A stretch of DNA of 64,000 nucleotides from an uncultured Syntrophobacteraceae bacterium (lineage in GTDB: Bacteria; Desulfobacterota; Binatia; UBA9968). The translations under genes were made by a program, and so were the position numbers. Of the stretch, positions 25,467 through 39,900 are shown piece by piece. The DNA lies in NCBI GenBank assembly GCA_964404195.1, contig CAYOJC010000001.1, positions 57,940 through 121,939 of the forward strand, given 5' to 3'. The stretch's first letter is position 1. Every line of letters begins with the position of its first letter. Below the pieces are notes generated by a model. It was given only the letters and a program-made list of their open reading frames with translations. It did not search any database and was not told where the DNA came from.

Positions 25467-27011
25467 CTACGGCGCGATCCAAACCCGGGAAAAACCCGCC
25501 GTCGTCATGTTGAAGCGGCCGTCCCAGTCGGTTTCGAAGCCGCGCACCTTCTTATGATACGTGTAGTAGCGCGGGATAAACGCCAGCGGGATTTCCGGAA
25601 CTTCTTCGTTGACGATGCGCACCACCTTGGCCCAGACTTCGTAGCGCTTCTTGGGGTCGATGGTCTTCGCCGCCTCCGCCATCAAGCGGTCCACTTCTTT
25701 GTTGCAATAGCCGGACGAATTCTCGCCGCGTTTTTTCGCTTTGACCTCGTCCTCGTTGCAGCTAAGCTCTCCGGGATATTCCATGCCCAGTTCGGTCGGC
25801 ACGTCGCTGCCGCTCAGAATCATCATGAAATCGCCCCTGCTTTCACGCGTCTCGCGCGCGCCTCTTTCCAATATCGTGACTTTGGTTTTTATCCCCGCCG
25901 AGGACAACAGGCTCTGAATCACTTGCAGTTCCTCGCCTTCGGTCTGCAAGCCCATCAGCTCGACTTCGAGGTTGGGCGAAACGCCCGCTTCCTTGAGGAG
26001 CGCCTTGACCTTTTCCAGGTCGCGCTTCACCTCGGGAAGTTTCATGTGCCAGGGACTCTCCTTCGGAACCAACTGGTCCGCGGGCTCGCCCAGTCCCCAG
26101 AACGCGCCTTCGATAAATTGTTTTTTGTCGAGCGCGTAGCGCACCGCCTGGCGCAGCTTTAAATTATTAAACGGCGGATCCACGACGTTAAACAGCATGC
26201 GGCGAAAGCCGGCGTACTTAGCCTCGGTTGCCCTGAGATCGGGATATTCCCCTTTGAGAACGCTCCGCACGGAACCGTAAGCCGTTCTTTCAACCATATC
26301 GACGTCGCCGGCGCGCACCGAGGTGAAGCGGACCGTCTCGTCGCGAATCGGGCGCAGGACCAGCTCGTCGAGATAGGGAAGCCCCTTATGCCAGTAATCC
26401 GCGTGGCGCATGAAGACGATCTCCCGGTCGGGTTTGTAGTCTTTGAACGCGAACGGGCCCGTTCCCGGCGGCATCGTTTGCGCGCGCGGATCGGTAATCG
26501 ACCCTTCAGGCACGATGGGAAACGGACGGATCGAACCCAGCGTGGCCAAAAAAGCCGAATCGACTTCCTTCATTACGAACTCGACGGTGTACTTGTCCTT
26601 GACGTTGACCGCGCCGACGTTTCGGAGCGGAACCAGACCGGTGGGGGCGTTCTTCGGATCCATGGCGTAGGCGACGCTCCATTTCACGTCCGCCGCGGTC
26701 ATCTCCTTGCCGTTGTGGAATTTGACCCCGCGCCGCAAGTTGAAGGTATAAAGTTTTCCGTCGGGCGAAACTTTCCACGACGTGGCGAGCGCGGGGACCA
26801 TCTTGCTGTCCTTGTCGAAGTCGATCAGCGGCTCGTAAACGATGCCGCGCACGGCGAAATTCGTGGATGTGGTGCGCTGGAAGGGATTGACCGCCGTAAT
26901 GTCGTTGCGCAGTCCTAAAATAAGACGGCCGCCACGCCGCGGAGTTTCCGCGGCGTGCGCGGAGGCGGTGAAAAGTAAAAGCGTCAAACCGGCGACGATG
27001 ATGTGGATCAT
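25467..27011 (-). CDS. ABC transporter substrate-binding protein, family 5 (DppA-like), copy 3
   Basis: MIHIIVAGLTLLLFTASAHAAETPRRGGRLILGL. GGAG RBS. The track ORF is extended to 27428. Confidence 0.8.
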   Translation of the reverse strand: MIHIIVAGLTLLLFTASAHAAETPRRGGRLILGLRNDITAVNPFQRTTSTNFAVRGIVYEPLIDFDKDSKMVPALATSWKVSPDGKLYTFNLRRGVKFHNGKEMTAADVKWSVAYAMDPKNAPTGLVPLRNVGAVNVKDKYTVEFVMKEVDSAFLATLGSIRPFPIVPEGSITDPRAQTMPPGTGPFAFKDYKPDREIVFMRHADYWHKGLPYLDELVLRPIRDETVRFTSVRAGDVDMVERTAYGSVRSVLKGEYPDLRATEAKYAGFRRMLFNVVDPPFNNLKLRQAVRYALDKKQFIEGAFWGLGEPADQLVPKESPWHMKLPEVKRDLEKVKALLKEAGVSPNLEVELMGLQTEGEELQVIQSLLSSAGIKTKVTILERGARETRESRGDFMMILSGSDVPTELGMEYPGELSCNEDEVKAKKRGENSSGYCNKEVDRLMAEAAKTIDPKKRYEVWAKVVRIVNEEVPEIPLAFIPRYYTYHKKVRGFETDWDGRFNMTTAGFSRVWIAP

Positions 27012-27043
27012 AAAAAATCTCCTGAAAGGAACTTGTCGGCATC

Positions 27044-27150
27044 TTCGTGCTTCGACAGGCTCAGCACAAACGGAAAAATGAACCTCGCCACCGTTCGCCC
27101 TGAGCCCTTCGGCTTCGCTCGGGACAGGCCCGTCGAAGGGTGAACGGTGG
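27044..27150. repeat. REP-like composite element, an inverted copy of 20200-20278
   Basis: Hairpin B is ttcgtgct…agcacaaa (27044-70). Hairpin A is gccaccgttcgccct…agggtgaacggtgg (27087-150). On the minus strand it is followed by a T-run (catttttcc). Confidence 0.5.
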
Positions 27151-27154
27151 GTTG

Positions 27155-28258
27155 TCAGACCGCGCGAGCGGCTTCCTTCTGCGTGCACCAGGGAATGGCG
27201 TGCCCCATGCGGCAGCGCGCCGACGCCTTGGCCAAAGCTTCCTCGAACACGGCATGAATTCTCCGATCTTCGTCCTCGTATTCGATCTGCGCGCCGCCCT
27301 GCTTGACGCTTTTGTCGGTCGGCGCGTCCTCGTGATTGAACATCGAGAAACGGTAGCGCCAGGTGTTCCAGCGAAGCGCCAGGTAGCGCGCCGGGTCGGC
27401 GCTGGAGTTGAAGTGCTGGTGGAACCATTGGTTGGGCGGCACGACGACGCTGCCCGGCTTCCAGTCGACGCGCATCCGCTCTTTGCCTTCCGGCCAGAGC
27501 AGCGAGTAGCCCTGGCCGGTGAGGATGATGACGTGCGCGCCGGGGCCGTGGCGATGCGCTTTCTTGTAGGTGCCGACGCTGAACTCCGATATGTGCGACA
27601 TCATGATGTTGCCGGCGAGGTCGAACATGACGTGGCGGTTGCCGCCTGCCCCGCGTGCCGGCTTGTCGTAAAGCGGTACCGTGTAGACGTCGGGAACGAA
27701 GTTGACGGAGAGCTTGTCGCCCCAGAGCTGACCGACGCCGCTGAAGTAATCGTTTTCTTCCTCCGGATTGAAGCGGTCGAGAAAAGCGTAATCCGCGTTG
27801 AAGACGAAATCGACGTTATGAAACAAGCTCAGCATGAAAGGCGCGTTGGTCACGGCGAAGTAACGCACCGGCGCGTTGCCCTGGCCGTTGAAGTGTTGGT
27901 ACGAGGCGTTCAAAGGGATGGCAAAGAGGCTGCCGGGATGCCATTCGAAGGTGTGTTTCCTCCCGTCTTTTTGCCAGATGGTGGTGGCCCCGTGGCCTTC
28001 CACGATGAAAACCATCTCTTCATAGAGGTGCCTCTGCGGCTTGAGCGACTTCCCCGGCGGAATGACGCACACGTAGCCGTCGTTGGTCCCTCCCGTGCCG
28101 TCGAGATTAATGAACGCTCCCAGGCCGCCCTTGAGATCCCAGGGCGCGACTTCGACTTTGCGCAGGTCCTCGATGAAAAATCCCCGGTGGATGGGAATTT
28201 TCTGCGCGATCTGCCAGGTCTCGTACGTATCGATCATCTGATCGTCGGTGTATTTCAT
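27155..28258 (-). CDS. bicupin-fold protein (paralog family A, copy 3)
   Basis: MKYTDDQMIDTYETWQIAQKIPIHRGFF… is ~80% identical to copy 1. GGAGG RBS 7 nt upstream of the ATG at 28258. Confidence 0.65.
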   Translation of the reverse strand: MKYTDDQMIDTYETWQIAQKIPIHRGFFIEDLRKVEVAPWDLKGGLGAFINLDGTGGTNDGYVCVIPPGKSLKPQRHLYEEMVFIVEGHGATTIWQKDGRKHTFEWHPGSLFAIPLNASYQHFNGQGNAPVRYFAVTNAPFMLSLFHNVDFVFNADYAFLDRFNPEEENDYFSGVGQLWGDKLSVNFVPDVYTVPLYDKPARGAGGNRHVMFDLAGNIMMSHISEFSVGTYKKAHRHGPGAHVIILTGQGYSLLWPEGKERMRVDWKPGSVVVPPNQWFHQHFNSSADPARYLALRWNTWRYRFSMFNHEDAPTDKSVKQGGAQIEYEDEDRRIHAVFEEALAKASARCRMGHAIPWCTQKEAARAV

Positions 28259-33078: not shown

Positions 33079-34049
33079 TGCCGCTTCTCGAAGTCAAAGG
33101 CCTGACGAAGTACTACGACCTCAGCGGCGATCCGCTGAGCCGTCTGTTCCGCGGCACCAAGCTGCTCAAAGCGGTCGATCATATCAACTTCTCGATCGAC
33201 GAAGGCGAGACCTTCGGGCTGGTCGGCGAAAGCGGCTGCGGAAAATCGACCACCGCGCGCCTTATCACGCGCTTGATCGAGACGACCGAAGGAGAAGTGA
33301 TTTTTCAGAACCGAAACATTCTTAGCCTGCCGAAGAAGCGAGTCCGGGAAATCAGGAGCGATATCCAGATGGTCTTTCAGGACCCATTCGCGTCGCTGAA
33401 TCCGCGCATGAAGGTCCTGGAGATCGTCGGCCGGCCGGTGACGCTTTATCAGGGACTCAAGGGGAAAAAGAAACTCGACACGGTCGCCGAGCTTCTAGGA
33501 CTGGTCGGACTCCAGCCGGAGGCCATGCACCGCTATCCGCACGAATTCAGCGGCGGGCAGCGCCAGCGGATCGGCATCGCGCGCGCTCTGGCGGCGAACC
33601 CAAAGCTGATCATCGCCGACGAGCCGGTATCTTCTTTGGACGTTTCGGTCCAGGCGCAAGTTTTGAATCTGTTCAAGAAGCTGCAAAAGGAACTGAAGCT
33701 CACGATGCTCTTCATCTCGCACGACCTCAACGTCGTCGAGTACCTCGCCGACACCGTCGCCGTGATGTACGCGGGAAAGATCATGGAGATCGCGCCCGTG
33801 CAGGAGATTTTTCAATTCCCCAAGCACCCGTACACTCAGGGCCTGATGGCCTCCAACCTGACTCCCGATTCCTTCGAAGTCAAAAAGACGCCCACGCTGA
33901 GGGGCGAAGTCCTTCTGCCGCTGAATCCTCCTCCCGGCTGCCGCCTCGAGCCGCGCTGCCCGATTCGCGTCGAGCGCTGCAAGACCATCGAGCCTCCGCT
34001 CGAACAAAAACGCCCCGGCCACTCTGCCGCGTGTCACGAAGTGACGTGA
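33075..34049 (+). CDS. ABC transporter ATP-binding protein (DppF-like)
   Basis: GESGCGKST, FSGGQRQR, LIIADEPVSSLD. Confidence 0.85.
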   Translation: MMPLLEVKGLTKYYDLSGDPLSRLFRGTKLLKAVDHINFSIDEGETFGLVGESGCGKSTTARLITRLIETTEGEVIFQNRNILSLPKKRVREIRSDIQMVFQDPFASLNPRMKVLEIVGRPVTLYQGLKGKKKLDTVAELLGLVGLQPEAMHRYPHEFSGGQRQRIGIARALAANPKLIIADEPVSSLDVSVQAQVLNLFKKLQKELKLTMLFISHDLNVVEYLADTVAVMYAGKIMEIAPVQEIFQFPKHPYTQGLMASNLTPDSFEVKKTPTLRGEVLLPLNPPPGCRLEPRCPIRVERCKTIEPPLEQKRPGHSAACHEVT

Positions 34050-34095
34050 CGACGGGGTTAAAAAGTAGAATGTCCCTTTTTTCCCGCTTCTTTTG

Positions 34096-34932
34096 TTAGC
34101 CCGCCTTCTTAGGATACGAGAAGACTACATCGCGCGGGCACCAAATTGCTGCGGTATCGTCGCCGAGGGCAACTGTTCTTCCGGCGAGAAACTCCATACC
34201 AACCCAGGCGCAAACCAATGCGTCCAAGGCATCTTCGTACCTCTTTAAATAAACCAATTTCTGTACACTTCCCTCCGCGGGTATCGGGATGTTTAGCGGT
34301 CCGAATGCAGCTGCGAGGGCGCTGTGAATCGCAACAAACTCGGTGAGCAGAGCCTGAATGCGCTGCAGGAGCGTGAACGATGGCCAATAGTCGCGCGACT
34401 TGGAGACTTTGTAGGGTATCCGACGCGAACGCTTCAGCAACGAGAGCAGCGCCGGATGTGGATACACCTCGAGCATACATGGCGCGCCGGCGACGGAAGT
34501 CCCCACCGTGGCGAGTGGGTAGCCGGCTGCGCCGAACGCATTCGAAAGAGCAGCGCCAAGTGGCCCCGGTCGCTTCTGATTAGGACTGTGTGCTGAACAC
34601 CAACACGCTCCGAACTCTGTGGAAATGGCATCGTCTGCTCGTCGCCGGCAAGAAATCGAGACTGTTGCGACAGGCATGTCGATGGTAATGATGTCGATGG
34701 TACATCCAGCAAGCTGCTGCGCAGCTGCGAGCAGCTTGACCACATCTGGAACGCCACCGTGGAAGGTGGGTAGGTCCCAATCAATGCTCCACCCACGCGC
34801 GAGCGCGAGAAATTCATCGTAACTTGGGGCTGCCGCAACGTACCGCCATCCAGATTCCTCGGAGCGAACGACCGCCACGCCACTTGGTTCGGTGGTCGTC
34901 CAGGCCGCGTCGATAGCAAGTATTGTGGGCAT
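34096..34932 (-). CDS. DUF429-family protein (predicted RNase H-like fold)
   Basis: MPTILAIDAAW…ITIDMPV…EVYPHPAL are collinear with the DUF429 family motifs. It is separated from the upstream gene by 34 bp. Confidence 0.6.
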   Translation of the reverse strand: MPTILAIDAAWTTTEPSGVAVVRSEESGWRYVAAAPSYDEFLALARGWSIDWDLPTFHGGVPDVVKLLAAAQQLAGCTIDIITIDMPVATVSISCRRRADDAISTEFGACWCSAHSPNQKRPGPLGAALSNAFGAAGYPLATVGTSVAGAPCMLEVYPHPALLSLLKRSRRIPYKVSKSRDYWPSFTLLQRIQALLTEFVAIHSALAAAFGPLNIPIPAEGSVQKLVYLKRYEDALDALVCAWVGMEFLAGRTVALGDDTAAIWCPRDVVFSYPKKAG

Positions 34933-34965
34933 ATGAGGGGTACTGGGTCGCGCTAACGTCCAAAG

Positions 34966-35913
34966 TCACCGGCCCGCTGTAAGCGGGTCCGGTGCACTGG
35001 TGGGTTGGGCATTGCCTTCGTAGGCGGCGATCGTCCAGCTACAACCGGGATTGACGCCGTTACCGTCGTCATCCTCGAACTTTGTACGCAAACCCGACCG
35101 AGCTTTCATGACCTTCATCTTCTTCGCAGGCGAGAACTCCGCCGGCAGCAGTTGCGTATCGTCGCTTAGTTGGCTCAACAGTCCGAGGTAATGCCGCGTA
35201 TTTTTCTGTTTTGCGGGATCGCCATGCATGTGCTGAAGTCCCGCCTCGATGACTGCGGGTGATAAGAAGTGAGACCAGTTTAGGCACCACCGCACCTCCG
35301 GCTGTTCGGTCGAATCTTTTCTCGGTATCGGCATGCAGTGTAACGGGGAGGACCGCGGCAGATTGTTAGGTCCCGTGTTCCCAAGCAACGACGAAACCAC
35401 AACCTCCTCCGCTTCAGGCAAGAGGACACAACCGGTCCATTGTTGGTTTTCCTCGTCAATTCGCAATCGCTTAAACGCGTTGCTGAGGAAAATCTGGGCC
35501 ACCTCGTCAGCGCAGAAGTCCCCAATACCAATCGAGCCGCGCAACGGAAACTTCTCGGCAAAGAAAATCTCCATCAAGAGTATCGACGCGAACACGAAGC
35601 GATATGCTGACTTGACATCGACCGGATAGGACACCAGCACAAGCGTGTCGAAGACGAACTGACCGTACTCGAAATTAGGTTCAGGTTCGTTGGGACTCCC
35701 CGGCACCGCTCTAGGAGAAAACATGTGCCCTCTAGCGTGACTGATTAGCTCTGCATACCTCGTAGTAGTGCTCTCCAGCCCTTCTCGGGTCTGAATCCGG
35801 TCAGCAAAACCCAACACATCAACCATAGCAATGAGTCGGTTCTCAATATACATATGGTGCTCGATGAGGCGGTGCCCAACGTATAGCGTTTTATCCCCAA
35901 AGCCTGGAAGCAA
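34966..35913 (-). CDS. hypothetical protein with weak class-III nucleotidyl-cyclase/GGDEF-fold-like motifs
   Basis: IAMVDVLGFADRI, FVFDTLVLVS and RGSIGIGDF are weakly reminiscent of the cyclase metal-binding and GxGxHxG segments. There is no confident family assignment. GC is lower than the surroundings. Confidence 0.4.
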   Translation of the reverse strand: MLPGFGDKTLYVGHRLIEHHMYIENRLIAMVDVLGFADRIQTREGLESTTTRYAELISHARGHMFSPRAVPGSPNEPEPNFEYGQFVFDTLVLVSYPVDVKSAYRFVFASILLMEIFFAEKFPLRGSIGIGDFCADEVAQIFLSNAFKRLRIDEENQQWTGCVLLPEAEEVVVSSLLGNTGPNNLPRSSPLHCMPIPRKDSTEQPEVRWCLNWSHFLSPAVIEAGLQHMHGDPAKQKNTRHYLGLLSQLSDDTQLLPAEFSPAKKMKVMKARSGLRTKFEDDDGNGVNPGCSWTIAAYEGNAQPTSAPDPLTAGR

Positions 35914-36211
35914 TCAAGCCTCGGATAGGTTGGCGAAGTGGCGACGGGGGGATAAAACGTGTTGGACTAAACCGCGAAGCAGCGCGTCAGTTGCGGCTAT
36001 GCGGATTGTAAAGTGACGCAGCGGCGCAGAGTGGAGTGCTGTGTTGGCAATCGAACGGCGTGTGGGTGAAGGTCGAGTTCGACGCTGATAGATTTTCCGT
36101 GATTACCACGGTGCCATGGGGTTTGGCAGCCACTTCTTGGTGTCGGCAGACACACCTGTGCGAAGAGGGCAAGTTGAGAGTTAAAGAAGCACAAGAGCCG
36201 TTGAGTTTTTC

Positions 36212-37387
36212 TCATGAGGAATCCCATTGGGGTGAGTACGGCAGCGCTGGCAGATCAGCGACGACGATCATGGTTCCCTTCTGGCAACGAGGGCAGCGGG
36301 AAAGGTCGATGCCGGTGATCTCCCGCAAAAGGTCTTGGGCTGATCTGTTGGGAAGTTGGGGCAAGGCGGGATTAAGTCCCAACAGCTTGCGGCATTGAGG
36401 GAGAGCTTGCTTCTTGGAGCGGTTAGCGAGAAAGCCGAAGTGACGGACGCGCATGAAGCCATCGGGCAAGACGTGCAGCAAGAAGCGGCGGATAAATTCT
36501 TGGGCATCGAGGGTGAGGGTCTTCTTTCGATCCCCGTCTTTTCGATCTCTATAGCTCAAGATGACCTGGCCGTTTTGCGCGTTGAGGATGCGGTCGTTGG
36601 ACAGAGCCACGCGGTGAGTGTAGCGGCCGAGGTAATCAAGCACGGTCTGTGGAGAACCGAACGGCTTTTTCGCGTAGACGACCCAGCTCTTTTGGCGTGA
36701 TGCTTTGATCTCGTTGTCGGCCGCTGGGATTTTTCCTTTATCACAGGCCTGTTGTAACAGACCCAGAAACTTTCCACGAAAGACCTGGCTCAGAGCTGTG
36801 ACCGGGAACAGAAAGTTTTTGCGCGCCGAGATCCAGCGGCTGCCATCGAATGACAGAGCGCCTGCGGGGACGAGACAGTGTAGATGGAAATGATCTTTGA
36901 GCGTTTGATCCCAGGTATGGAGCACGGCGGTAATGCCCACCGTTGCGCCAAAGCGCCTTTGGCCGAACTCCAGGAGCGTTTCACTGACGGCTTTGAACAG
37001 AAGAGCCAACAGAATCTTTTTGTGGGCGAGAATCAGAGGATTAAATTCATGCGGCAAGGTGAAGACCAGATGGAAGTATCCCACCGGCAAAAGCTCAGAG
37101 GTTTGCCTCTCTAGCCACTTGGCCTTGGCCAGCGACTGGCATTTCGGGCAGTGGCGGTTACGGCAGGAGTTATAGGTCGGGTGCTCAAAACCGCAAGTGT
37201 CGCACTTCTTTAGATGCCCTCCCAGCTCTTGGGTGCGGCAGACCTCAACGGCCCGCATCACCTTTTTGTGGGAGGCCGGCAAACGATGCGCACGGCGGTA
37301 GCTCTCCCCGTGGCTACGAAAGATATCGGCCAGCTCGGGGCGCGCCTTTTTTTCTCCTGCCGCCCGCGCATGAGCGAGAGGCAGCAA
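36212..37387 (-). CDS. IS91-family transposase (HUH endonuclease, rolling-circle)
   Basis: Zn-binding N-terminus (CDTCGFEH…CRNRHCPKCQ) and the HUH motif AVLHTWDQTLKDHFHLHCLVP. Confidence 0.85.
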   Translation of the reverse strand: MLPLAHARAAGEKKARPELADIFRSHGESYRRAHRLPASHKKVMRAVEVCRTQELGGHLKKCDTCGFEHPTYNSCRNRHCPKCQSLAKAKWLERQTSELLPVGYFHLVFTLPHEFNPLILAHKKILLALLFKAVSETLLEFGQRRFGATVGITAVLHTWDQTLKDHFHLHCLVPAGALSFDGSRWISARKNFLFPVTALSQVFRGKFLGLLQQACDKGKIPAADNEIKASRQKSWVVYAKKPFGSPQTVLDYLGRYTHRVALSNDRILNAQNGQVILSYRDRKDGDRKKTLTLDAQEFIRRFLLHVLPDGFMRVRHFGFLANRSKKQALPQCRKLLGLNPALPQLPNRSAQDLLREITGIDLSRCPRCQKGTMIVVADLPALPYSPQWDSS

Positions 37388-37402
37388 AGATCAAGGCGCC
37401 TT

Positions 37403-38239
37403 TCAGTCAGGGAATCTCAACAGGTCCAGCGGATTCGCCGTGCTTGTGAGTTTGTGCTGGCGGATCTGCAAATAACGCTGGGTGCTCTGAAGAGAGTTGT
37501 GACCCAACAGCGTCTTAATGGTCACCAGATCCACCCCGGCTTCTAACAGATGCGTGGCAAAGCAGTGGCGCAGCGTGTGGATGCCGTGGCCTTTTTGGAT
37601 GCCGGCCTTCAGCTTGGCAAGATTGTAAATGCGCTGGGCGTAGTCGATCGAAAGCGGACCGCCCTTTCGGTTGGGAAAAAGCCACGTTGGGGAACGGTGC
37701 TCTTTCCAATACGAGCGCAGCTCGGTCAACAGCCGGTGGGACAAAATCGTGTAACGGTCTTTTCTCCCCTTGCCTTGCTCCACCTTAACCATCATCCGTT
37801 CGCTGTCGATGTCGCTCACTTTGAGCCGCACCAGCTCACTTACCCGAAGCCCCGTCGCATAGGCCGTCATCAAAAGACAGCGGTCGCGAAGCTTGCCGTT
37901 GGCACAACGCAAACGCTCCACTTCCTTCTGGCTTAATACCTCCGGCAATCGCCAGCTCCCTTTTCGCGGTGGCAAAAACAACTTCTCTTCATTCCATCCC
38001 AGAATCTGGTGATAGAAAAACTTCATCCCCGAGATCGCCACGTTGCGCGAACTCGGCGAGAGGCCCCGCTCTTTGAGGTGCAACAGATAAGAGCGAATCT
38101 GCTCTTGAGTGAGCTGATGCGGTGACTGACGGAAATGCTTGACCAGTCCCACCATCGCTGAAACGTAGGACTGCTCGGTCCTGGGCGAGAAGTTGCGCAG
38201 CCTCATCTCCTCGATCATCTTGGTCCGTAGTGCTCCCAT
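37403..38239 (-). CDS. tyrosine site-specific recombinase (phage-integrase family) associated with IS91
   Basis: C-terminal catalytic region HTLRHCFATHLLEAGVDLVTIKTLLGHNSLQSTQRYL (R..HxxR..Y). Confidence 0.85.
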   Translation of the reverse strand: MGALRTKMIEEMRLRNFSPRTEQSYVSAMVGLVKHFRQSPHQLTQEQIRSYLLHLKERGLSPSSRNVAISGMKFFYHQILGWNEEKLFLPPRKGSWRLPEVLSQKEVERLRCANGKLRDRCLLMTAYATGLRVSELVRLKVSDIDSERMMVKVEQGKGRKDRYTILSHRLLTELRSYWKEHRSPTWLFPNRKGGPLSIDYAQRIYNLAKLKAGIQKGHGIHTLRHCFATHLLEAGVDLVTIKTLLGHNSLQSTQRYLQIRQHKLTSTANPLDLLRFPD

Positions 38240-38714
38240 AACAAACCCTCCTTGGATTTAAATTTGGGAGCGAGGGTATCACAGGGAACACTGATCGATG
38301 AGATGATCTGAATGAGTCAGGAACGTGAATAGAAAACGAGAAGGTGAGTGAAAAGCACTGGCTCTACAGAAGCAGAGCCACCGCGAAGCGGTTTAGTTCA
38401 ACTATTAATTGAACAGGTCAATCTATCCCCATCCGACAGTTTCGAAATTCGGGGCAATTCTACAATCCTTCCCGCCTCTTAACAACAAAAACACTTCCCC
38501 GACAAACACTGCAAATATGTCAGCCTTTGCCGTTACCGTCGGACAGTGATCGAAGAGGCCTTGGGCAATCCTTTTTAAATTTGGACCAGCCATAGACCGT
38601 TTCTTAATGGGTGGATTGAAAAGCTTGGGCAAGCAATACTCCAAACCGAACCTGCACGTCAAGCGGCACGCGGCTGGTCTCGTAGACGTCCCCGCAATAG
38701 GAACAAGCGTCGCG

Positions 38715-39416
38715 CTACTGTTCGCTGAGCCGCTTTACCTGAGAAAAGAGATTTCCGGCCGTGATGACGGAGGAGGGGTTTACGGGCAATCCGGCTGCCT
38801 CTAAAGCTTCAGCGACCCATGTATTGCAGTTTCTAAACAGGTGAAACTTTTCTCGCGCCGGATAGAAGCGGCTGTTCGGAAAAAGCCCTTGCCGGGACTC
38901 TTCCGGCGTTCCCGACCGCAGGAACGAGTCGGACACGAACTGAGTCAATCGCTGATATCCCTCTGCGGAAAGCGTGAGCCCATAAATCTCCGCGCCGCGA
39001 AAATGATCCTCAACGGCGCCGTCGAAGGCCGTGACGTGCACAACACTGCCGCCGGAAAAGAAAGCGGCCTTGATCGCCAATCCTATTCCGGCGTCGGGAG
39101 TCAGGTAAAAGTCCCGGTCGCCCCATCCGATCTCCAGGTTCTCTCCGGGCAAGTCTTGAGCCTCCGGTAAAAGACCGGAAGGAATGTCCGCTTTGCTGAT
39201 AGCGATCCCGGTGTGCCAGCCATAATTGACGACCAAGACGCGTTTCCCCGTTTCTCCGGGAGCCGGCCGCGCGAAGGGTTGTTCGACGGCCGTCGCGCAA
39301 GCGGAAAGAAAAACGAAAAGAAAGGTTGCACAAAATGCTTTCCGCGCCGGATACCAATAAGAAAGATCGTTTGCTCTGTCCCGTATTTTATCTCGAATAT
39401 TCATAGTTCCAATCAC
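38715..39416 (-). CDS. hypothetical lipoprotein
   Basis: Signal plus lipobox (FVFLSAC). No confident family assignment. Confidence 0.4.
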   Translation of the reverse strand: MIGTMNIRDKIRDRANDLSYWYPARKAFCATFLFVFLSACATAVEQPFARPAPGETGKRVLVVNYGWHTGIAISKADIPSGLLPEAQDLPGENLEIGWGDRDFYLTPDAGIGLAIKAAFFSGGSVVHVTAFDGAVEDHFRGAEIYGLTLSAEGYQRLTQFVSDSFLRSGTPEESRQGLFPNSRFYPAREKFHLFRNCNTWVAEALEAAGLPVNPSSVITAGNLFSQVKRLSEQ

Positions 39417-39438
39417 GTCAGCATGCTACCTTAAAAGT

Positions 39439-39900
39439 ATGCACGCTCTTGAGCTTAAGGTTCCGCCTCTCGCATTTGTTCTTTTCATAGCGCTGCTCAT
39501 GTGGCTGGTCACATGGGCCGTACCCCAACTCGGATTCGCCTTTCCCGGACGCGCTGTCGTCGTAGTGGCTCTCGCTGTCGCCGGAACAATCACAATCGTC
39601 TTAGGCGTTGCGTCGTTCAGGCGGGCAAGAACGACTCTCAACCCCATGAAGCCCGAGTCATCGACTTCTTTGGTTGTTTCCGGCGTCTACAAGTTTACGC
39701 GGAACCCGATGTACCTGGGGGTTCTTTTGGTCTTGGCCGGGTGGGCGGTTTTCTTGTCGAACTTGCCTGCGTCCCTTCTGCTTCCTGCTTTCGTCCTCTA
39801 CATGAACCGCTTTCAAATCGAACCTGAGGAGAGGGCGCTCAGGTCCAAGTTTCCGGAGAAGTTCTTGGCGTATCAATGTCGGGCACGCAGGTGGCTGTGA
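39439..39900 (+). CDS. isoprenylcysteine carboxyl methyltransferase/phospholipid methyltransferase-family membrane protein
   Basis: Several TM helices and the ICMT/PEMT motif SGVYKFTRNPMYLG. Confidence 0.7.
   Translation: MHALELKVPPLAFVLFIALLMWLVTWAVPQLGFAFPGRAVVVVALAVAGTITIVLGVASFRRARTTLNPMKPESSTSLVVSGVYKFTRNPMYLGVLLVLAGWAVFLSNLPASLLLPAFVLYMNRFQIEPEERALRSKFPEKFLAYQCRARRWL

Follow-up and report, generated by a model that had tools for sequence, protein, structure and literature searches.

To our knowledge, the described nucleotide-cyclase defences (Pycsar, CBASS, type III CRISPR, and Panoptes) all pair a synthase with a dedicated effector. Class III cyclases are regulatory enzymes as a rule. 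Pycsar cyclases depend on two metal-binding Asp residues, and their effectors are the CNBD-containing PycTM or PycTIR (PMC11224242). Among integron cassettes without an assigned function, phage-defence genes are common (bioRxiv 10.1101/2024.07.02.601719). The integron-cassette literature examined, including that report, made no mention of a cyclase-type cassette, and a literature search on stand-alone cyclase defence and on 'cyclase homology domain' with anti-phage returned nothing relevant.

In a 64-kb window (the whole stretch of DNA analysed), a gene for a cyclase-like protein and a DUF429 gene were found next to an IS91-family insertion sequence (IS). The locus is probably the relic of an integron-cassette array abutted by the IS, holding an unrelated DUF429 gene and a stand-alone cyclase-fold enzyme. 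The four co-oriented ORFs had been placed by the first-pass annotation exactly as we found them (Table 1). Its genes and family calls stood, and its summary as an 'IS91/integrase island with a two-gene cargo' did not. The cyclase-like and DUF429 genes are co-oriented as described, with a measured gap of 33 nt and not 34 bp. In its annotated form, the cyclase-like gene starts at the ATG, as do all homologs. We rejected the TTG start of the mechanical ORF, since the homologs all begin at the methionine of MY(L/F)ENR and the added stretch would fall within an attC site. The composition shift reported after dpp proved real but modest. The GC content of 34096–38402 was 55.7%, compared with 59.3% for the window (4th percentile among same-length windows), and GC3 was 0.60–0.67, compared with 0.71–0.78 in dpp. 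The shift does not end at 38400, as had been proposed, and runs on to about 39900.

Table 1. Coordinates of the features at the locus, numbered along the window.
Feature	Coordinates	Strand	Details
Weak attC-like candidate	33999–34101	−	R''-like GGCTAAC; from the DUF429 stop codon into the dppF 3' end
DUF429 gene	34096–34932	−	278 aa
Downstream attC-like site	34951–35010	−	60 nt; R'' GCCCAAC ... R' GTTAGCG; overlaps the 3' end of the cyclase-like ORF
Cyclase-like gene	34966–35853	−	295 aa from ATG at 35853; mechanical ORF to TTG at 35913, 315 aa
Upstream attC-like site	35874–35967	−	94 nt; R'' GTCCAAC, R' GTTGGGC; 12-bp perfect L''/L' stem
IS91-family insertion sequence	35961–38402	−	2442 bp; tyrosine recombinase and HUH Y2 transposase
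IS91-family transposase	36212–37387	−	391 aa; NF033538, Y2_Tnp, Zn_Tnp_IS91
Tyrosine recombinase, Xer/IntI-like	37403–38239	−	278 aa; Phage_integrase, Phage_int_SAM_4

The identification of an IS91-family HUH transposase was borne out by NF033538 (E = 4.5e-133, 443.7 bits, cut-off 125), Y2_Tnp (E = 1.5e-57), and the N-terminal zinc-binding domain Zn_Tnp_IS91 (E = 1.3e-33). Its companion matched Phage_integrase (E = 1.9e-39) and the SAM-like N-terminal domain Phage_int_SAM_4 (E = 4.4e-17), in agreement with the annotation as a tyrosine recombinase. On TIGR02249 (integron integrase), it scored 160.6 bits in two separate stretches, below the cut-off of 265, and on XerA_Arch it scored 196.7 bits, below the cut-off of 220. 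Its length and its TIGR02249 score led us to reject it as an integron integrase. The transposase and recombinase genes also appear together in plasmid annotations. The element is bounded by 15-nt terminal inverted repeats (35961–35975 and 38388–38402; GTTGRACTAAACCGC), and a small GC hairpin follows each repeat. The terminal motif has only these two occurrences in the 64 kb, and the left-end sequence TTGAACTAAACCGC is common to a related Skermanella element. Only the recombinase and transposase genes lie between the repeats, so both genes of the supposed cargo lie outside the element.

The attC-like sites were located with a home-made detector based on a shuffle z-score and calibrated on two arrays only. 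A version relying on at least 5/7 R''/R' complementarity and absolute energy density missed known Sulfurimonas sites and was replaced. The detector gave six candidates in the window, and the two best bracket the cyclase-like gene. The best one (z = −5.1) stands between this gene and DUF429, and its DNA fold (z = −4.8) was matched in stability by 0 of 200 shuffles. Its R'' box is homologous in position to a canonical GCCTAAC at homolog locus L027, which holds the stop codon. A T>C change in the window removed this stop, and read-through into the attC site gives the cyclase-like protein its terminal residues 282–295. The second-best candidate (z = −4.0) ends 20 nt upstream of the ATG. Its R'' box, supplied by the IS, is the final 7 nt of that element. 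The R' box of the site and the 5'UTR that follows (A[C/T]CGCCTCATCGAG) line up with the canonical attC on the upstream side of the L027 homolog. This homolog is 78% identical, has the same 20-nt attC-to-ATG spacing, and is flanked by canonical GCCTAAC...GTTAGGC attC sites, positionally homologous to those in the window. The weak candidate beyond DUF429 (z = −2.8) had a 66-nt fold no better than shuffles (z = −0.35) and may be a degraded attC site or a chance match. Another candidate (26067–26193) was dismissed, as it lies inside a 653-aa ORF.

By this detector, the cyclase-like gene has the layout of an integron cassette, an ORF followed by an attC with another attC in front. An integron integrase with the IntI-specific extra domain and an attI were not found within the window, where the sole recombinase belongs to the IS. 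The locus is CALIN-like, because it has attC-like flanks without an integron integrase; like BRiCs and CALINs, it presents one ORF that lacks a promoter and has attC sites at its borders. We propose that it is a short cassette-array relic without a nearby integron integrase, and that the IS91-family element inserted at the upstream attC site. The cyclase-like gene and DUF429 would then be independent units juxtaposed by cassette traffic, the former as a single-gene cassette from a widespread family without a name.

The first-pass annotation had tentatively read the two genes as a Pycsar/CBASS-type defence. In such a system, a nucleotide signal made upon infection would activate the RuvC-like nuclease. 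The DUF429 part of this proposal was confirmed by a PF04250 match (E = 2e-11) and by a RuvC-like model. The model describes a predicted single-domain nuclease of RuvC-like, RNase H fold with conserved acidic residues, which also matched the PADLOC single-gene defence candidate PDC-S44 (E = 1.8e-26). A literature search found no experimental validation of PDC-S44, and its only mention was in a metagenome survey. DUF429 belongs to clade D of the RNase H-like proteins; its members are mostly single-domain and are occasionally fused to NUDIX or RelA/SpoT domains (Majorek et al. 2014, PMC3985635). Such fusions to nucleotide-metabolising domains speak for a coupled pair, as do the defence-candidate match, the co-orientation with a short gap that contains no promoter-like or terminator-like site, and the cyclase and nuclease folds, each confirmed in models. 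However, Pfam and the structural model revealed no CNBD, SAVED, CARF, or STING-type sensor in the DUF429 protein, and there is no room for a cyclic-nucleotide sensor because the Pfam domain spans residues 17–259 of 278. Pycsar effectors, in contrast, all carry a CNBD (PMC11224242). No PADLOC model for Pycsar or CBASS gave a hit, an attC-type recombination site lies between the two, and the sizes of the two families differ greatly. The pair was found in this strain only (L028 and L029 are 100%-identical contigs). DUF429 was present at 0 of 21 non-redundant cyclase-like loci, homologs of 75–79% identity included, and the cyclase-like gene in 0 of 2 independent DUF429 lineages. Sampled DUF429 homologs were solitary, often adjoining HicAB, and never next to the cyclase-like gene. 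Conserved co-occurrence is absent; the two genes are therefore not a conserved system. The cyclase-fold and nuclease-fold assignments are retained, and their coupling into one defence is very unlikely.

The AF2 model of the cyclase-like protein (pLDDT 90.3) indicates a stand-alone, divergent class III nucleotidyl-cyclase fold. Residues 1 to about 195 are predicted to form the cyclase-homology fold, a palm with a β-α-β-β-α-β core, and residues from about 195 to 280 form a family-specific α/β extension. The fold matches class III cyclase homology domains (Rv1625c, 7yzi; soluble guanylate cyclase, 3uvj/2wz1; mammalian AC C1/C2, 1cjk/1ab8), and the longest and best structural matches were true cyclases. 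Their alignments covered about 158 residues, compared with 108–136 for the palms of mCpol (Panoptes OptS, 9mnr), GGDEF, and Cas10. The hairpin carries no GGDEF-type motif, and the dedicated effector gene of mCpol has no counterpart here. Adenylyl and guanylyl cyclases were also structurally closer than PycC, and the PycC profiles of PADLOC matched neither the protein nor 75 relatives. Unlike Pycsar, the gene has no adjoining CNBD effector or any conserved partner. Compared with CBASS, the predicted palm is of class III and not of the Pol-β/CD-NTase type, and no PADLOC CBASS model matched.

The three motifs quoted in favor of a cyclase (VDVLGFADRI, FDTLVLVS, and GSIGIGDF) are all present, with the family-invariant D12, D69, and R105/G106/G111. 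Across 75 sequences, down to 17% identity, D12, G15, D69, R105, G106, and N192 were invariant, and K179 and K215 were near-invariant. In the predicted model, D12 ends strand E2–13, D69 lies between strands E63–67 and E70–74, and R105 begins strand E104–116. Judged by place in the predicted secondary structure, D12 (end of β1) and D69 (β2–β3 hairpin) occupy the positions of the metal-binding Asp residues. The two invariant Asp residues are a likeness to Pycsar (PMC11224242). In contrast to class III domains, 57 residues and not about 44 separate them. The α4 Asn/Arg pair (N-x-x-x-R) of class III domains is not kept. In the close family, S124-x-x-x-K128 precedes helix 127–135, and Ser124 and Lys128 are not among the conserved columns of the wider-family alignment. 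This pair belongs to the transition state, and its loss means that cyclase chemistry is not assured. The protein further differs from class III cyclases in its C-terminal extension of ~85 aa with the invariant Asn192, in the lack of sensory or membrane domains, and in its setting as a mobile single-gene cassette.

At the sequence level, similarity to class III domains was undetectable. PF00211 matched neither the protein (E ≤ 1) nor any of the 75 relatives (0/75, E ≤ 10). Scans of the protein with Pfam, NCBIfam, PADLOC, and PHROGs gave only one PHROG of unknown function (E = 0.015), and the same scans run on the 75 relatives gave noise only. PDB sequences were searched with the protein itself and with the family profiles A1 and A2; no cyclase emerged, only chance matches to a TMCO1 partner and SWR1. 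An hhalign comparison of the family profile with the GGDEF protein encoded in L002 gave a meaningless probability of 0.3%. A regex scan of the 393 kb of collected DNA found no canonical class III cyclase to serve as a comparator. The class III cyclase-like call was thus upheld for the fold and the two Asp residues of the predicted model, and not for the sequence profile or the α4 Asn/Arg pair.

These observations bear on the possibility that the protein is a palm without cyclase activity, either a pseudo-enzyme that binds nucleotides or a nucleotidyltransferase of another kind, engaged, for example, in linear oligonucleotide synthesis or in protein or nucleic acid modification. Both the missing Asn/Arg pair and the undetectable sequence similarity would fit. 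The structural matches included PDB 6yii, an ATP-binding non-cyclase that resembles class III cyclases, and the chemistry of GGDEF, Cas10, and mCpol runs on the same fold. However, both Asp residues and Arg105 are strictly invariant in very divergent members, which argues for catalysis over mere binding, and the longest and best matches were the true cyclases. We regard this alternative as improbable. Enzymatic NTP turnover by the cyclase-like protein is slightly favored. In the proposed mechanism, Asp12 and Asp69 would bind an NTP with two metal ions, as in other class III cyclases, and Arg105 and Lys179 would hold its phosphates. The NTP would be turned into pyrophosphate and a nucleotide that is cyclic or modified in some other way. 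More speculatively, the C-terminal extension, with the invariant Asn192 and the near-invariant Lys215, might complete the pocket or gate the activity. As the gene spreads and is kept without a dedicated partner, its output would have to work via general components of the host or else drain or poison the pool of nucleotides.

The family comprises 1,588 cluster representatives at 50% identity, with hosts in Proteobacteria, Campylobacterota, Firmicutes, Bacteroidota, and an Asgard archaeon. A pattern scan of 185,579 species genomes gave only 7 loci, a patchy and rare distribution, and tblastn found no match in 72,556 plasmids and 50,697 phages. The members found were chromosomal, in environmental bacteria, as opposed to mobile integrons borne on plasmids. 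The Sulfurimonas arrays hold the homolog as a lone ORF with an attC site on either side and IntI-like integrases adjoining, together with AbiTii, GmrSD, and toxin-antitoxin cassettes. Integrases of 320 aa are present in the L001 and L002 arrays. Further attC-like sites were found beside the homologs in L027 (both sides), L014 (array of 4), L011, L015, L017, and L021. Toxin-antitoxin, defence, and mobile genes are enriched near homologs in about half of the loci, the neighbors being AbiTii, GmrSD/HEC-06, HigB, DUF433, PIN, CopG, and a DDE transposase. The other contexts, again about half, are plain housekeeping (pur, trp, ribonucleotide reductase, MCP, and acyl-CoA dehydrogenase). No neighbor family of any kind recurred across the 21 non-redundant loci. 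NUDIX, which adjoins the homolog in L002–L004, was rejected as a conserved partner, as an attC site intervenes and it does not recur elsewhere.

The housekeeping surroundings of about half of the loci, the lack of a dedicated effector at any of them, and the usual regulatory role of class III cyclases would suit an ordinary orphan second-messenger cyclase, serving physiological regulation through the cyclic-nucleotide receptors of the host, with no part in conflict with phages or mobile elements. Such a role is at odds with the very patchy distribution, the recurrence as a mobile integron cassette, and the frequent toxin-antitoxin and defence neighbors. Moreover, two homologs, in two lineages, are pseudogenes, and most members are stand-alone, lacking the sensory or regulatory input domain usual in regulatory cyclases. 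We consider the purely regulatory role rather unlikely. The likeliest biological role of the cyclase-like protein, which we assign tentatively, is in conflict, as phage defence or addiction. A more specific version is doubtful, though less so than the regulatory one: a one-protein conflict module carried on an integron cassette, triggered by phage and gated by the extension, which would cause growth arrest through a signal to a host target or through NTP drain. If real, such a partnerless cyclic-nucleotide defence would be unlike Pycsar, CBASS, Thoeris, and type III CRISPR in its architecture.

For genome scanning, the stand-alone cyclase-fold gene and its DUF429 neighbor illustrate that functional coupling should not be read from adjacency within a cassette array. 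The family represents a predicted cyclase-fold protein with an invariant two-Asp site, missed by family and defence models, that repeatedly occurs as a one-gene integron cassette without a partner, and it merits a Pfam entry. If the protein is active, either a cyclase can serve by itself as a mobile adaptive trait, or its effectors are encoded elsewhere.

After the convergent dppBCDF genes, the window carries four co-oriented minus-strand ORFs (see table). Profile scans bore out the first-pass annotation for three of these: a DUF429 protein (PF04250, E 2e-11), an IS91 transposase (NF033538, 444 bits vs a cut-off of 125), and a tyrosine recombinase. For the cyclase-like ORF, the ATG at 35853 is the start of the annotated protein (P0001, 295 aa) and of all homologs. 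The composition shift reported for this region is real, but it is small (GC of 55.7% vs a window-wide 59.3%, which ranks at the 4th percentile among same-length windows; GC3 of 0.60-0.67 vs 0.71-0.78 in dpp), and it extends past 38400 to about 39900 across ordinary genes, namely DUF2459 and a PEMT-type methyltransferase. The low GC continues past the IS91-family element (IS), and more than these four genes may have been acquired. No attC-like sites (integron cassette recombination sites) were detected in 38403-39900.

Features of the window and frameshifted homologs of the cyclase-like gene
Feature	Position	Strand	Properties
attC-like palindrome	26067-26193	both	127 nt, AACCAAC...GTTAAAC, z -3.3 on both strands
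DUF429 ORF	34096-34932	-	278 aa
attC-like site	34951-35010		detector z -5.1
Cyclase-like ORF	34966-35913	-	315 aa from TTG start
attC-like site	35874-35967		detector z -4.0
IS terminal inverted repeats	35961-35975, 38388-38402		15 nt, GTTGRACTAAACCGC
IS core-site termini	35961-35967, 38396-38402
IS91 transposase ORF	36212-37387	-	391 aa
Tyrosine recombinase ORF	37403-38239	-	278 aa
Intergenic region past IS	within 38403-39900		312 nt, 49% GC, 1st percentile
DUF2459 gene	38715-39416		GC3 within 0.60-0.66
PEMT/ICMT-type methyltransferase gene	39439-39900		GC3 within 0.60-0.66
Homolog, Methylophaga MAG	L011, 10001-10839		broken by frameshift into two ORFs
Homolog, groundwater metagenome contig	L021, 936-1907		broken by frameshift into two ORFs

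The IS is bounded by terminal inverted repeats, each followed by a small GC hairpin, and the terminal motif occurs nowhere else in the 64-kb window. The left-end sequence is identical in a related Skermanella plasmid element, with TTGAACTAAACCGC shared at that end; therefore, these bases belong to the IS. The repeats and the Skermanella left end together delimit an element of 2,442 bp with only the recombinase and the transposase. The cyclase-like and DUF429 genes, previously described as its two-gene cargo, fall outside these ends (35961-38402). On the minus strand, the first bases of the IS, GTTGAAC, match the integron core site GTTRRRY perfectly, and its last bases, GTCCAAC, are a perfect match to the inverse core site RYYYAAC. 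The latter double as R'' box for the attC-like site ahead of the cyclase-like gene. Elements of this subgroup, which carries an IntI/Xer-like recombinase, may use attC sites as targets, or their termini may imitate the ends of cassettes; the core-site match could also have arisen by chance, at about 1e-3 for a perfect RYYYAAC.

Sites for cassette recombination were sought with a simple purpose-written detector (RYYYAAC and GTTRRRY boxes 55-140 nt apart, a spanning hairpin, and shuffle z <= -2.5), which recovered the known sites of the Sulfurimonas arrays. It yielded only six distinct sites on both strands of the window, and the cyclase-like gene lies between the two with the best scores. Independent DNA folding of the site nearer to DUF429 gave z -4.8, with 0/200 shuffles as stable. 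The palindrome at 26067-26193 was rejected as a real attC; it lies within a 653-aa ORF (25467-27428, minus strand), and its resemblance to attC in this coding sequence is probably coincidental.

The window was compared with L027, a locus where a 78%-identical homolog has detector sites on both sides (canonical GCCTAAC...GTTAGGC). Upstream of the ATG, the window reads GTTGGGC-ACCGCCTCATCGAG-(6 nt)-ATG, and L027 reads GTTAGGC-ATCGCCTCATCGAG-(6 nt)-ATG. At the 3' end, ...GGCAATGCCCAAC of the window faces ...GGCAATGCCTAAC of L027, where the stop codon is located within the R'' box. This box is GCCTAAC in L027 (5229-5235) and GCCCAAC in the window (35005-35011). Due to the single T>C change, the stop codon is lost and the ORF reads through the attC (34966-35010). 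The resulting tail (QPTSAPDPLTAGR, 14 aa) is not conserved and is disordered, with pLDDT below 50. Unconserved tails of similar length are present in other close homologs (P0003, P0008, P0011, P0016, P0019, and P0023). Judged from sequence, the cyclase-like gene qualifies as an integron cassette, both in the window and in other genomes, and we regard the L027 comparison as settling this point. The homology of the flanks to the L027 sites places a recombination site between the cyclase-like and DUF429 genes, which by this comparison are separate units joined by cassette traffic. No integron integrase was found near the cyclase-like gene in the window, and thus the locus resembles an attC cluster lacking integrase.

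Further homologs have detector sites at the gene ends (L014, in an array of four; L011, L015, L017, and L021). In the Sulfurimonas loci, a divergent 320-aa IntI-like integrase lies upstream of small genes arrayed in one orientation, among them the homolog; its neighbours include AbiTii, GmrSD/HEC-06, NUDIX, ParE/YoeB, and a methylase-HNH pair. An imperfect palindrome of 64-69 nt (type TAAC...GTTA) comes after every array gene, and the homolog consists of a single ORF flanked by two of these. Directly upstream of it, an exceptionally long and stable palindromic site of 136 nt (L001, 7845-7980; -44 kcal/mol, z -9.8) is much stronger than the adjoining 64-69-nt attC sites, and may have arisen by attC duplication or be a composite site.

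The first-pass annotation had proposed a two-gene signalling defence of the Pycsar/CBASS type, and the lack of conserved co-occurrence of the two genes speaks against it. Among 21 non-redundant loci with a cyclase-like homolog (33-79% identity; downstream sequence >= 0.9 kb in 13), tblastn revealed a DUF429 relative in none. The reverse gave a like result: DUF429 relatives at 61-63% identity, in two independent lineages, are solitary, adjoining HicAB, without the cyclase-like gene. Other contigs with both genes are only 100%-identical pieces from the same strain. Family sizes differ as well, with at least 1,778 clusters for DUF429 vs 63 for the close cyclase-like family. Clustering of all flanking ORFs gave no recurring neighbour of the cyclase-like gene except synteny between near-identical genomes; for the closest homologs (78-79% identity), the genes downstream are DUF433 or HigBA toxin-antitoxin genes, or an HNH gene. 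In contrast to Pycsar, the locus has no CNBD effector, conserved operon, or profile match, and for CBASS the protein has the wrong fold.

Two further neighbourhoods were recorded. A HicA/HicB pair directly follows the DUF429 homolog in L030 (5001-6634) and L036 (5001-6331), in opposite orientations, and the genes that precede DUF429 in L036 include a tyrosine recombinase in truncated form, with 35-40% identity to that of the window IS, and a BrxL-like ATPase. This DUF429-HicAB neighbourhood, recurrent in two independent lineages, may be worth a survey. At L025 (3274-4902) and L026 (2683-4316), which hold the two nearest relatives whose context could be used (78-79% identity), the cyclase-like homolog is directly downstream of a 245-aa OmpA-family gene, with no attC-like site detected; in this lineage, the cassette seems fixed at a chromosomal site other than the window's post-dppF position.

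The 315-aa ORF had no match in Pfam, NCBIfam, PADLOC, or PDB sequences, and sequence methods found no link of its family to any cyclase or GGDEF. The AlphaFold model, built on a 38-sequence alignment, was confident (pLDDT 90.3, pTM 0.88), and a Foldseek search with it supported a cyclase-type fold; the tentative cyclase assignment was therefore right at the fold level. Across 75 representatives, down to 17% identity, D12, G15, D69, R105, G106, and N192 are invariant, and K179 and K215 are near-invariant. The predicted model places D12 at the end of beta1, D69 within the beta2-beta3 turn, and R105 at the opening of beta4. In cyclases of the class III and Pycsar types, these positions hold two metal-binding aspartates and a phosphate-binding arginine. 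Matched by position in the model, without coordinate superposition, D12 and D69 would be the metal-binding aspartates and R105 the phosphate-binding arginine. The metal-binding D102 and D146 of the Pycsar cyclase EaPycC occupy equivalent places (PMC11224242). The canonical alpha4 Asn/Arg pair is not conserved, being Ser124/Lys128 in the close family and variable in the wider one. The protein is thus similar to class III cyclases in fold and metal site, whereas it fails their sequence profile and lacks the Asn/Arg pair.

In an exhaustive profile search, 1,588 cluster representatives passed a threshold of E<=1e-3, and 99 passed E<=1e-30; no Pfam domain or name beyond 'hypothetical protein' was found among family members. 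The distribution is patchy, with hosts including Sulfurimonas, Hyphomicrobium, Methylophaga, Parvibaculum, Bacillus/Priestia, Flavobacterium, Syntrophomonas, and Lokiarchaeum. A few members have extra parts: P0192 (537 aa) bears C-terminal leucine-rich repeats (LRR_8, E 9e-13), and P0097, P0101, P0104, and P0121 (415-437 aa) are among the wider-family members with a common N-terminal extension of about 130 aa and no Pfam match. These rare sensor-like fusions could hint at regulation of the stand-alone proteins. Two homologs (L011 and L021) are apparent pseudogenes, consistent with a dispensable accessory gene.

The firm basis for a functional proposal comprises the modelled cyclase-type palm fold, the invariant two Asp and Arg, the stand-alone architecture, the single-gene cassette mobility, and the lack of a fixed partner. 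The protein would bind NTP with two metal ions and turn it over, a cyclic nucleotide being the simplest product; we lean slightly toward such enzymatic turnover. The conserved C-terminal extension (N192, K215) may complete or gate the active site. Since the gene moves without an effector, general host components or the nucleotide pool would have to be the target of its output. Our best guess, though a distinctly tentative one, is a conflict role (defence or addiction). It is pointed to by the cassette lifestyle, the two pseudogenised copies, the patchy distribution, the presence of toxin-antitoxin, defence or mobile-element genes nearby at about half of the loci, and the phage defence function often encoded by integron cassettes of unknown function (bioRxiv 10.1101/2024.07.02.601719). 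Against it count the housekeeping genes in the other half of the homolog contexts, and the family's absence from sequenced plasmids and phages. Overall, the first-pass observation was largely correct and its fold call good, but its functional two-gene model was not supported. The cyclase-like gene belongs to an undescribed cyclase-fold family with the behaviour of an autonomous mobile gene, and it does not amount to a new two-gene system.
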